In this document: positions 5,193 through 55,810 of the stretch, one piece after another
How positions within the stretch are numbered: position 1 is the first letter of the stretch
Layout of the letters: every line of letters begins with the position of its first letter
Origin: Escherichia coli
GTDB lineage: Bacteria; Pseudomonadota; Gammaproteobacteria; Enterobacterales; Enterobacteriaceae
NCBI RefSeq assembly: GCF_003991155.1
Contig: NZ_CP031293.1
DNA: 64,000 nt
Reading direction: 5' to 3' (one strand)
Notes under the pieces: generated by a model
What the model was told of the DNA's origin: nothing
Seen by the model: the letters and a program-made list of their open reading frames with translations, nothing else
The model's database searches: none
Program-made: the position numbers and the translations under genes

Positions 5193-5385
5193 AAACGCCC
5201 CCTTTTTGTACCTTAACAGCATGATTTATGGTCAAAAAGAGATACAACCACATAATTTTCAAGACTATTTTGGCCCCCTACGCTGGCATTATCCAGATCA
5301 GGTGATACGGGTATTTCTCAGCCTTCACGCAGAAGGGCACCCCGAGTCGTTTGGTTGCGATGATAAATCGCAAAGGAGGATGGTA

Positions 5386-27694: not shown

Positions 27695-28015
27695 ATGATC
27701 GTGCAAAAAGAGCTGGTCGCTATTTATGATTATGAAGTCCCTGTACCTGAAGATCCGTTTTCCTTCAGACTTGAGATCCATAAATGCTCTGAATTATTTA
27801 CAGGTTCCATCTACCGGCTGGAGCGATTCCGGCTACATCCAACATTTCATCAACGTGATCGAGAGGATATCGACCCGCTAATAAATGATGCGTTGATTTA
27901 TATAAGAGATGAGTTTATTGATGAGCGAAAATTACGGGGCGAATCACCAGAAATGGTAATAGCCATTTTTAATCGTGAACTACAGAATATATTCAACCAA
28001 GAAATAGAAAAATAG
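27695..28015 (+). CDS. yehK: Small protein YehK
   Basis: 106 aa ORF directly after yehI. Confidence 0.8.
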   Translation: MIVQKELVAIYDYEVPVPEDPFSFRLEIHKCSELFTGSIYRLERFRLHPTFHQRDREDIDPLINDALIYIRDEFIDERKLRGESPEMVIAIFNRELQNIFNQEIEK

Positions 28016-28453
28016 CTTTATTAAAGAGGGAGACGGTATTCCCCCTTAGATGCGTTTCAATTTGCCCGTTACTTCAACAAATCAATCAACCGTAACAGAG
28101 CCACTAATAACTCCAGTACGGCAATGAGCACAGTTAACTTTTGTGTCAGCGTGTCCATCCGCTCTCCTTATTAAGGAGCGCAACACCAGCACCTTACCCT
28201 TACACTGCCTGTCGATACTGGTTTACGTATGTTGGACCACGATGTTGCACTCCGGATCAGGGCACTACCTGCGGCACCACCCGTCCGGTAGCCATGACTT
28301 GAAATGGGTTCGATCCGGCGCAACGTCCCAACAGTCAGGATTATAAATCTCATTATCTTAATTGCAACGGGGTCCACCGATGGTTATAATTCGTTCGTTG
28401 GAACACGATGTTGCACAGGCTGCGGCGTTGGGCCTGAAAATAGTAAATAAAAG

Positions 28454-28481
28454 AACCTGCCTCACCAGCAGGTTTTTTTAT
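28454..28481 (+). terminator. Rho-independent terminator in the yehK-yehL intergenic region
   Basis: aacctgc / gcaggtt stem, ctcacca loop, then tttttta. Confidence 0.55.
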
Positions 28482-28590
28482 TTACTGTGATCTGCTTTCC
28501 AGATATTTTCCGCTCAAACAACTAATGCGCCAAACATTTATTGCGCGTAAAATATCGTTTATTTCATTAATACATTTCAGGGATGAATAT

Positions 28591-29679
28591 ATGTCACCGC
28601 AGAATAATCATCTGCAGCGTCCGCCTGCCGCTGTGTTATACGCCGATGAACTGGCAAAATTAAAACAAAATGATCACGCACCTTGCCCGCCCGGTTGGCA
28701 GTTAAGTTTGCCTGCGGCCCGTGCTTTTATCCTTGGCGACGAAGCGCAAAATATTAGCCGTAAAGTCGTGATCAGTCCCTCCGCTGTCGAACGCATGTTA
28801 GTCACTCTCGCTACCGGGCGCGGTTTGATGTTGGTGGGGGAACCTGGCACCGCAAAATCGCTCCTGTCTGAATTACTGGCAACCGCTATTAGCGGCGATG
28901 CCGGGTTAACCATCCAGGGCGGCGCATCTACCACCGAAGATCAAATCAAGTACGGCTGGAACTACGCTCTGCTTATCAATCATGGTCCATCAACGGAAGC
29001 GCTGGTCCCTGCCCCGCTTTACCAGGGAATGCGCGACGGCAAAATCGTCCGTTTTGAAGAAATAACGCGTACACCGCTGGAAGTGCAGGACTGTCTGTTA
29101 GGTATGCTTTCTGACAGGGTGATGACGGTGCCGGAACTCACCGGTGAAGCCAGTCAGCTCTATGCGCGGGAAGGCTTTAATATTATTGCCACTGCCAATA
29201 CCCGCGATCGCGGCGTCAATGAAATGAGTGCTGCGCTAAAGCGTCGTTTCGATTTTGAAACTGTCTTTCCGATTATGGATTTCGCTCAGGAGCTGGAGCT
29301 TGTCGCCAGTGCTTCGGCGCGTTTGCTGGCCCATAGCGGTATTCCGCATAAAGTGCCTGACGCGGTACTGGAGTTACTGGTCCGCACCTTCCGCGATCTG
29401 CGTGCCAACGGCGAAAAGAAAACGTCAATGGATACACTAACAGCGATTATGTCCACCGCTGAAGCCGTGAACGTGGCCCACGCTGTGGGCGTCCGCGCCT
29501 GGTTTTTAGCGAATCGCGCAGGTGAGCCAGCCGATCTGGTGGACTGTATTGCCGGAACCATCGTCAAAGATAACGAAGAAGATCGCGCTCGTCTGCGCCG
29601 TTACTTCGAACAGCGAGTCGCCACACATAAAGAAGCTCACTGGCAGGCTTATTATCAAGCCCGCCACCGCCTGCCGTGA
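28591..29679 (+). CDS. yehL: MoxR-like AAA+ ATPase YehL
   Basis: Start trimmed to MSPQNNH, 362 aa; Walker A GEPGTAKS. Confidence 0.9.
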   Translation: MSPQNNHLQRPPAAVLYADELAKLKQNDHAPCPPGWQLSLPAARAFILGDEAQNISRKVVISPSAVERMLVTLATGRGLMLVGEPGTAKSLLSELLATAISGDAGLTIQGGASTTEDQIKYGWNYALLINHGPSTEALVPAPLYQGMRDGKIVRFEEITRTPLEVQDCLLGMLSDRVMTVPELTGEASQLYAREGFNIIATANTRDRGVNEMSAALKRRFDFETVFPIMDFAQELELVASASARLLAHSGIPHKVPDAVLELLVRTFRDLRANGEKKTSMDTLTAIMSTAEAVNVAHAVGVRAWFLANRAGEPADLVDCIAGTIVKDNEEDRARLRRYFEQRVATHKEAHWQAYYQARHRLP

Positions 29680-48908: not shown

Positions 48909-49081
48909 GATGAGCATTCAGATAGTGGTTCACGCGCACGGGTTGCGCACCGCCGGAGTAAGGATTTACTGAGGCTAGCGACGCCATCATAACGAGCAAA
49001 AAGTGCGATCGTCAAAGAAGAATCGTGAGGAAATGCTGCATTGCTGACATTTACGCCAGCAATGCAGCGCAAAAGAACTTT

Positions 49082-54560: not shown

Positions 54561-55810
<1,250 letters not shown>

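Follow-up and report, generated by a model that had tools for sequence, protein, structure and literature searches.

Type I toxin–antitoxin pairs of the zor–orz family have been described together with their mechanism (Fozo et al. 2010, as cited; Wen et al. 2014, PMC3919570, and 2017; and a 2024 mSystems survey, PMC11264685). Escherichia coli O157:H7 Sakai carries two of them in a yehK–yehL gap of 1240 bp, zorO–orzO beside yehK and zorP–orzP beside yehL, and nearly all published experiments concern zorO–orzO, not zorP–orzP. Overproduction of ZorO arrests growth, and OrzO rescues the cells (PMC3919570); depolarization of the membrane by overproduced ZorO has likewise been shown for this homologue. 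Rescue operates through the first 18 nt of OrzO and needs RNase III but not Hfq, as established for zorO–orzO of EDL933 only (PMC3919570). Seed swaps and compensatory mutations in the same pair show RNA pairing directly (PMC3919570). The published zorO mRNA has a 174-nt 5′ UTR with its ribosome-binding site (RBS) at +164..+169 and an EAP region at +73..+102, at whose 3′ end OrzO pairs (PMC5397157). A second effect of OrzO is on translation, which it blocks by sitting on the EAP region, probably a standby site for the ribosome. Processing that removes the first 28 nt of zorO (Δ28) opens this region, the Δ28 mRNA being the better translated form (PMC5397157).

The architecture of zor–orz also matches that of shoB–ohsC and dinQ–agrB, and it is closely comparable to that of tisB–istR1, in which the genes are likewise divergent and non-overlapping and a short sRNA seed (18–21 nt) pairs far upstream of the RBS. 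The long 5′ UTR that needs 5′ processing for translation and the standby-site logic are common to both systems. The toxin and sRNA sequences of tisB–istR1 are unrelated to those of zor–orz, however, and tisB is SOS-induced, whereas we know of no inducing signal for zor.

We analysed a 64,000-nt stretch of E. coli DNA from contig NZ_CP031293.1 (hereafter the window), focusing on its yehK–yehL gap (28016–28590; yehL starts at 28591). The sequences of the window and of E. coli 2016C-3878 are 100% identical. A preliminary description of this gap had reported a 20-bp direct repeat followed by a terminator and had suggested a small transcript or a duplicated regulatory site. The repeat exists and its first copy lies where it had been placed (GTTGGACCACGATGTTGCAC, 28231–28250, C at position 7), but the second copy (GTTGGAACACGATGTTGCAC, A at position 7) occupies 28397–28416 rather than 28398–28417, so that the copies are 166 bp apart and not 167. 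The 64-kb window contains two copies of the 20-mer GTTGGAMCACGATGTTGCAC and no more, even with up to three mismatches allowed (chance expectation 0.02); none of 100 shuffles gave two matches. Ungapped extension at the 166-bp spacing lengthens the repeat to 25 nt at 88% identity. A weaker second direct repeat lies just past the main one (28262–28275 and 28413–28426; 14 nt, 79%; GCACTACCTGCGGC and GCACAGGCTGCGGC). It would carry sRNA–mRNA complementarity on into the first hairpin of the sRNA, but chance or a shared ancestry might explain it equally well.

The gap almost certainly holds one zor–orz type I toxin–antitoxin module of the zorP/orzP RNA-specificity type. All the defining features of zor–orz that can be read from sequence are present, with the single exception of the T3S protein variant of ZorP. 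Judged by these features, the locus is real, functional and already known. The repeat is explained by its layout: with a toxin gene and an antitoxin gene that diverge without overlapping, the seed of the sRNA and its target appear in the DNA as two copies in the same orientation. The 5′ end of the sRNA corresponds to copy 2, and copy 1, on the plus strand, is antisense to the transcribed zor 5′ UTR.

The antitoxin was identified with a covariance-model scan. Rfam family RF02083 (OrzO-P) matches the plus strand at 28404–28479 with 102.8 bits (E 1.5e-17), against a gathering score of 60; the match is full length (model positions 1–76 of 76) and was obtained again on the whole window. We set the 5′ end of OrzP at G 28397 so that the published V1 signature ACG falls at +9..+11, which gives an 83-nt sRNA (28397..28479, plus strand). 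Its start reads GUUGGAAC-ACG-A, and the V1 triplet is thus that of the P specificity. The predicted orzP promoter (28362..28390, plus strand) consists of a −35 hexamer TTGCAA (28362–28367), a 17-nt spacer and a −10 hexamer TATAAT (28385–28390). Transcription would end at a rho-independent terminator (28454..28479, plus strand) with the stem AACCTGC (28454–28460), the 7-nt loop CTCACCA, the complementary stem GCAGGTT (28468–28474) and a T7 run to 28479. This terminator, which had been called earlier, is borne out by the sequence and is the 12-bp terminal hairpin of the Rfam OrzO-P model, although a simple terminator scan gave the hairpin on the minus strand only. The suggestion of a small transcript was therefore right, copy 2 forming the 5′ end of the RF02083 match as extended to OrzP and the terminator its 3′ end. 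A minus-strand OrzO-P match at 28449–28559 (25 bits) and matches to Thr and Trp leaders were rejected; all are sub-threshold and driven by the terminator hairpin.

On the opposite strand, a minus-strand frame at 28069..28158 encodes the zor toxin, a 29-aa hydrophobic peptide (MDTLTQKLTVLIAVLELLVALLRLIDLLK) followed by a stop codon. This frame lies within the coordinates that the preliminary description had covered but had gone unnoticed there. The peptide is identical, letter for letter, to the synthetic full-length ZorO peptide of PMC6669753 (section 4.3) and the same as that of the yehK-proximal (zorO) copy of O157:H7 Sakai. Pfam and NCBIfam scans gave no matches for the peptide, for which no model exists, nor for YehK. 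With Thr3 and Ala20 it has the ZorO protein sequence and not the T3S variant, unlike ZorP of O157:H7, which has Ser3. Thr3 is, however, also encoded by the P-type loci of O55:H7 and Escherichia sp. MOD1-EC7003. The protein variant is therefore separable from the RNA specificity type, and the P-type assignment of the window locus refers to its RNAs.

Both promoters share a single palindromic −35 element: the TTGCAA at 28362–28367 serves two divergent sigma-70-like promoters. In the zor direction (28340..28367, minus strand) it is read as 28367..28362 and is followed by a 16-nt spacer and TATAAT at 28345..28340. These TTGCAA and TATAAT hexamers are conserved in at least 99% of zor/orz loci (PMC11264685, Table 3). 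Transcription of zor probably starts at G 28332, 7 nt past this −10 hexamer, which with the published length and the ATG at 28158 gives a 174-nt 5′ UTR (28159..28332, minus strand). With the starts at 28332 and 28397, all the published zorO–orzO landmarks come to lie exactly where they should. The RBS, AAGGAG, is at +164..+169 (28164..28169, minus strand) and is predicted to lie in a stem that is invariant across 10 distinct UTRs, its predicted probability of being unpaired, P(unpaired), being 0.07. The EAP region, +73..+102 by the coordinates of PMC5397157, corresponds to 28231..28260 (minus strand). This proposed ribosome standby site contains the GGAGUG motif, present in the DNA as GGAGTG on the minus strand (28254..28249) and described as conserved in PMC11264685. 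Downstream of the toxin frame, a terminator-like hairpin (28029..28045, minus strand) would give a zor mRNA of ~311 nt from 28332, or ~283 nt after Δ28 processing; these predicted lengths match northern bands of ~310 and ~280 nt reported in PMC3919570.

The yehK end of the gap differs from that of other strains. At 28010–28030, ~55 bp between the yehK stop and the zor terminator are missing relative to O55:H7, C8 and Sakai. The deletion takes the usual yehK stop codon, such that YehK has 106 aa (ending EIEK) and not 105. The yehK stop now abuts the zor terminator hairpin directly, and the hairpin is weaker than in other strains.

Among the relatives, the closest is the zorP–orzP pair of O157:H7 Sakai and EDL933. 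The window unit is identical to the Sakai P unit at 440 of 460 positions (95.7%) and to the O unit at 405 of 458 (88.4%). It shares with zorP–orzP the site between yehK and yehL, the promoters, the RBS, the 174-nt UTR, the 83-nt length of the sRNA, and a 20-nt seed and target that are identical, including an A·G mismatch at position 7. It differs in that the P unit stands alone, without the zorO–orzO partner of the tandem O157:H7 locus, as well as in Thr3, in three positions of OrzP (+27, +30 and +34) and in the ~55 bp missing beside yehK. With zorO–orzO it shares the identical toxin peptide and the same architecture, and we infer that it shares the mechanism too, but zorO–orzO has GAA and not ACG as its V1 triplet, and its seed differs at positions 6 and 9–11.

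A third relative is the published orphan antitoxin OrzPmg of MG1655 (PMC11264685), which is the same sRNA gene with the same promoter, the same site by yehL and an identical seed. What remains in the 306-bp gap of MG1655 is both promoters, the first ~30 nt of the zor leader and an entire orzP with the same sequence as in Sakai. Unlike the window, which keeps a complete toxin gene, K-12 lacks the toxin frame and the pairing site. Orphan loci of K-12 and laboratory strains lie at 2987–3292 of L003 and 9291–9596 of L008 (MG1655) in our set of loci. Another form of loss is seen in S1-INA-02-A (L007, 2086–2940), in which IS1A is inserted after the first ~85 bp of orz-side sequence; yehL through yehQ are missing and yehR comes next, orz and the MoxR operon both having been destroyed by an IS-mediated deletion.

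The module is widespread in E. coli. Among 5426 complete E. coli genomes, 5232 match the orz half or more and 3392 match 80% or more of the region; these counts are consistent with a published estimate that ~30% of genomes are 'orz-only' (PMC11264685). O and P pairs recur unchanged in the representatives of three other Escherichia species. A scan of species representatives with an exact 27-mer of the orz terminator found three Escherichia lineages only, all of O or P type; within the reach of that scan, neither a further specificity type nor a locus beyond Escherichia turned up. Moreover, OrzP has been detected by northern blot in MG1655 (PMC11264685), where its seed is identical to that of the window and 3 of 83 positions differ. 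The preliminary description would have given up its reading had there been neither a transcript nor conservation, and both are on record: the northern for OrzP in MG1655, and wide conservation in E. coli.

The predicted pairing between the two RNAs is as follows. Copy 2 (28397..28416, plus strand) is the OrzP seed, and these first 20 nt are complementary to +83..+102 of the zor UTR (28231..28250, minus strand), that is, to the antisense of copy 1. The layout is 6(1)13, with 6 bp, the A·G mismatch at seed position 7 and then 13 bp, so that 19 of the 20 nt are paired; zorO–orzO, by comparison, pairs over 18 contiguous bp including a G·U at position 13. In the homologue, function requires pairing over 15 or more contiguous nt, or over 17 or more if they are interrupted by a single internal mismatch (Wen et al. 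2014, PMC3919570), and the 6(1)13 pairing of the window falls within the discontinuous rule. The 25-nt seed duplex of the window has a computed energy of −34.8 kcal/mol, against −19.5±2.6 kcal/mol (minimum −28.3) for 500 shuffled seeds. Among the loci compared, cognate duplexes range from −31 to −34 kcal/mol and pairs with different targets from −16 to −27.5 kcal/mol. The P seed on the O target gives −18.9 kcal/mol, in agreement with the published inability of OrzP to repress zorO (PMC3919570). We used only the energy of the 25-nt seed duplex. An RNAduplex value for the whole sRNA against the whole mRNA (−64.9 kcal/mol) was dropped, as the calculation takes no account of folding within each RNA and adds up weak additional helices.

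Outside the seed duplex, OrzP of the window has its own features. It is identical to Sakai and MG1655 OrzP at 80 of 83 positions, its first 26 nt being the same as those of Sakai OrzP, and the substitutions are C for T at 28423 (+27), C for T at 28426 (+30) and G for A at 28430 (+34). All three strengthen a predicted 10-bp hairpin, in which nt 10–19 pair with 25–34 and the 3′ half of the seed is buried; the predicted P(unpaired) of seed nt 10–19 is 0.14 in the window allele and 0.40–0.42 in other P alleles. Minimum free-energy (MFE) folds of the sRNA 5′ region were inconsistent between alleles and types, and we claim no conserved seed-presenting structure beyond the 5-bp hairpin of the Rfam model. 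On these predictions, the position-7 mismatch and the three substitutions might tune repression. The mismatch is unchanged in O157:H7, O55:H7, C8, the source strain and Escherichia sp. MOD1-EC7003, and OrzP survives as an expressed orphan in about one-third of E. coli genomes. Together these facts could mean, though we consider it unlikely, that selection on OrzP does not favour the strongest possible repression of zor but acts on another property, for example a repression kept weak so that it can be tuned, or the control of a second target in trans. Were this so, the three hairpin-stabilizing substitutions of the source strain would be a further adjustment of seed accessibility.

The same features invite a less favourable reading, in which the locus would be a relic, in decay or under poor control, whose mismatch and OrzP substitutions block repression or whose toxin goes unexpressed. 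Some single mismatches do abolish OrzO function, as in the 8(1)9 mutant (PMC3919570); the window OrzP is predicted to sequester seed nt 10–19; the zor terminator hairpin is the weaker one noted above; and the toxin has already been lost from about a third of E. coli genomes. We nevertheless consider such decay very unlikely. The position-7 mismatch is also found in Sakai, C8, O55:H7 and Escherichia sp. MOD1-EC7003, which marks it as an old and stable P-type feature, and the pairing still has the at least 17 discontinuous nt of the published rule. The toxin frame, RBS, both promoters and both terminators are intact, and selection would act against an unrepressed toxin. An intact zorP/orzP-type module remains the preferred account.

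Variation between loci bears on whether the repeat acts as RNA or as DNA. We examined 12 loci (C8, E2348/69, GPEC1210, O55:H7, Sakai, MG1655 with its laboratory-strain twin KMS2001, and three further Escherichia species among them). Toxin-bearing loci, including the window, fall into four seed/target types, in which seed and target co-vary at positions 6 (T/A/G), 9 (G/A), 10 (A/C) and 11 (A/G/C). E2348/69 has a distinct type, GTTGGGGCGCCATG and GTTGAGTCGCCATG, in which position 5 is a wobble and position 7 a mismatch; its yehK is annotated as a frameshifted pseudogene (L004, 1056–1372).

Two near-identical 20-mers 166 bp apart in an intergenic region could also be taken for a duplicated DNA operator, through which a transcription factor would act on yehK or on the yehL operon. 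Such a role is barely credible here. Both copies lie within transcribed RNA, one at the 5′ end of the sRNA and the other deep in the toxin UTR, and not at promoters, and they are direct repeats without internal dyad symmetry. The copies diverge between specificity types yet stay matched, as RNA–RNA pairing predicts, and the seed swaps and compensatory mutations made in the homologue show that pairing directly. K-12, moreover, lacks copy 1 yet retains yehL and its upstream region. The earlier idea of a duplicated regulatory site thus fails at the level of DNA, the copies being a regulator and its RNA target rather than two protein-binding sites. We also discarded a link to regulation of the yehL (MoxR) operon, for which adjacency is the only evidence.

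Each copy had further been described as starting a very short frame. This holds for copy 1, where an ATG at 28229, 2 nt upstream of the repeat, opens a 20-aa frame, but not for copy 2, which lacks its own start and falls within a 42-aa frame that begins with TTG at 28362; neither observation carries significance. That these plus-strand frames encode small proteins is next to impossible even though one frame of each copy gives L(D/E)HDVA, because this likeness is that of a nucleotide repeat translated, the ATG at 28229 has neither a Shine–Dalgarno sequence nor an upstream plus-strand promoter, copy 2 lacks a start codon, and the residues change wholly between specificity types (for example, MLDHDVA and MLVRNVA).

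The zor–orz module also contains a likely inhibitor in cis. The first 28 nt of the zor mRNA (GUUGGGACGUUGCGCCGGAUC…; 28305..28332, minus strand), which by our folds and PMC5397157 would act as in-cis inhibitor, are absent from the translatable Δ28 form. In MFE and alignment folds the 5′ end of the mRNA, +1..+22 (GUUGGGACGUUGCGCCGGAUCG, 28332..28311), pairs with +74..+102. The leader opens with the GUUGG…GUUGC motif of the seed and covers the same UTR site as the sRNA. This pairing would explain in terms of sequence why, as published, the EAP region is hidden in the full-length UTR and becomes exposed once 28 nt are removed (PMC5397157). Indeed, the start of the zor mRNA (28312–28332, minus strand; GUUGGGACGUUGC) can be aligned as a gapped copy of the sRNA seed GUUGGAACACGAUGUUGC. 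In these models the locus holds three related segments: a cis inhibitor, a trans inhibitor and their target. The predicted effect of processing is small, the P(unpaired) of the EAP region rising from 0.28 to 0.38 after loss of the 28 nt. Across 10 distinct UTRs, the alignment of the cis helix showed only invariant pairs or one-sided G–C/G–U changes, with no double compensatory changes and with two non-pairs at one position. Covariation and folds are hence compatible with a helix between the 5′ leader and the EAP region, and agree with it without proving or independently supporting it.

By analogy, the P-type pair of the window probably works like zorO–orzO; for the source strain, we infer the transcripts, their ends and the toxicity from homology. 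Leftward transcription from around 28332 would yield an mRNA of ~310 nt, with a 174-nt 5′ UTR followed by the frame of the 29-aa membrane toxin, and rightward transcription from 28397 would yield the 83-nt OrzP, ending at the 28454–28479 terminator. The full-length UTR would be poorly translated, its first ~28 nt being paired with the EAP region at +73..+102 and its RBS held in a stem. Loss of these 28 nt would expose the EAP region, the probable ribosome standby site, and so raise translation. OrzP would pair through its 5′ seed with the EAP region, which would block translation and bring about RNase III-dependent decay of the mRNA. Once made, the toxin would insert into the inner membrane and depolarize it.

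For the biology of zor–orz this changes little, as the locus and its mechanism have already been published. Its value is for annotation: a seemingly 'empty' 575-bp intergenic region really contains a toxin gene and an RNA antitoxin. None of the RefSeq records examined, including those of MG1655 and O157:H7 Sakai, carries zor or orz features, though the genes are published and an Rfam family exists for orz; the yehK–yehL gaps without them are those of loci L001, L002, L004–L006, L008 and L012. The repeat itself suggests a rule for reading such regions. A short intergenic direct repeat with one copy just past a promoter and then a terminator marks a candidate sRNA side, and the other copy is expected antisense to the leader of a tiny hydrophobic frame. 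This layout is the DNA signature of a divergent type I toxin–antitoxin pair, as in tisB–istR, shoB–ohsC, dinQ–agrB and zor–orz.

Finally, other features of the window were noted. Between the orzP terminator and the yehL start lies a 16-nt inverted repeat (28502–28517 and 28541–28556; 88% complementary, 23 nt apart), which is kept in all aligned strains and may be a leader structure or an operator of yehL. Elsewhere in the window, three Rfam matches exceed their gathering scores: the isrC sRNA at 54629–54751 (plus strand, 145 bits), the Peptidase-S11 cis-regulatory RNA at 48913–48993 (minus strand, 72.8 bits) and a TPP riboswitch at 5259–5354 (minus strand, 61.3 bits).
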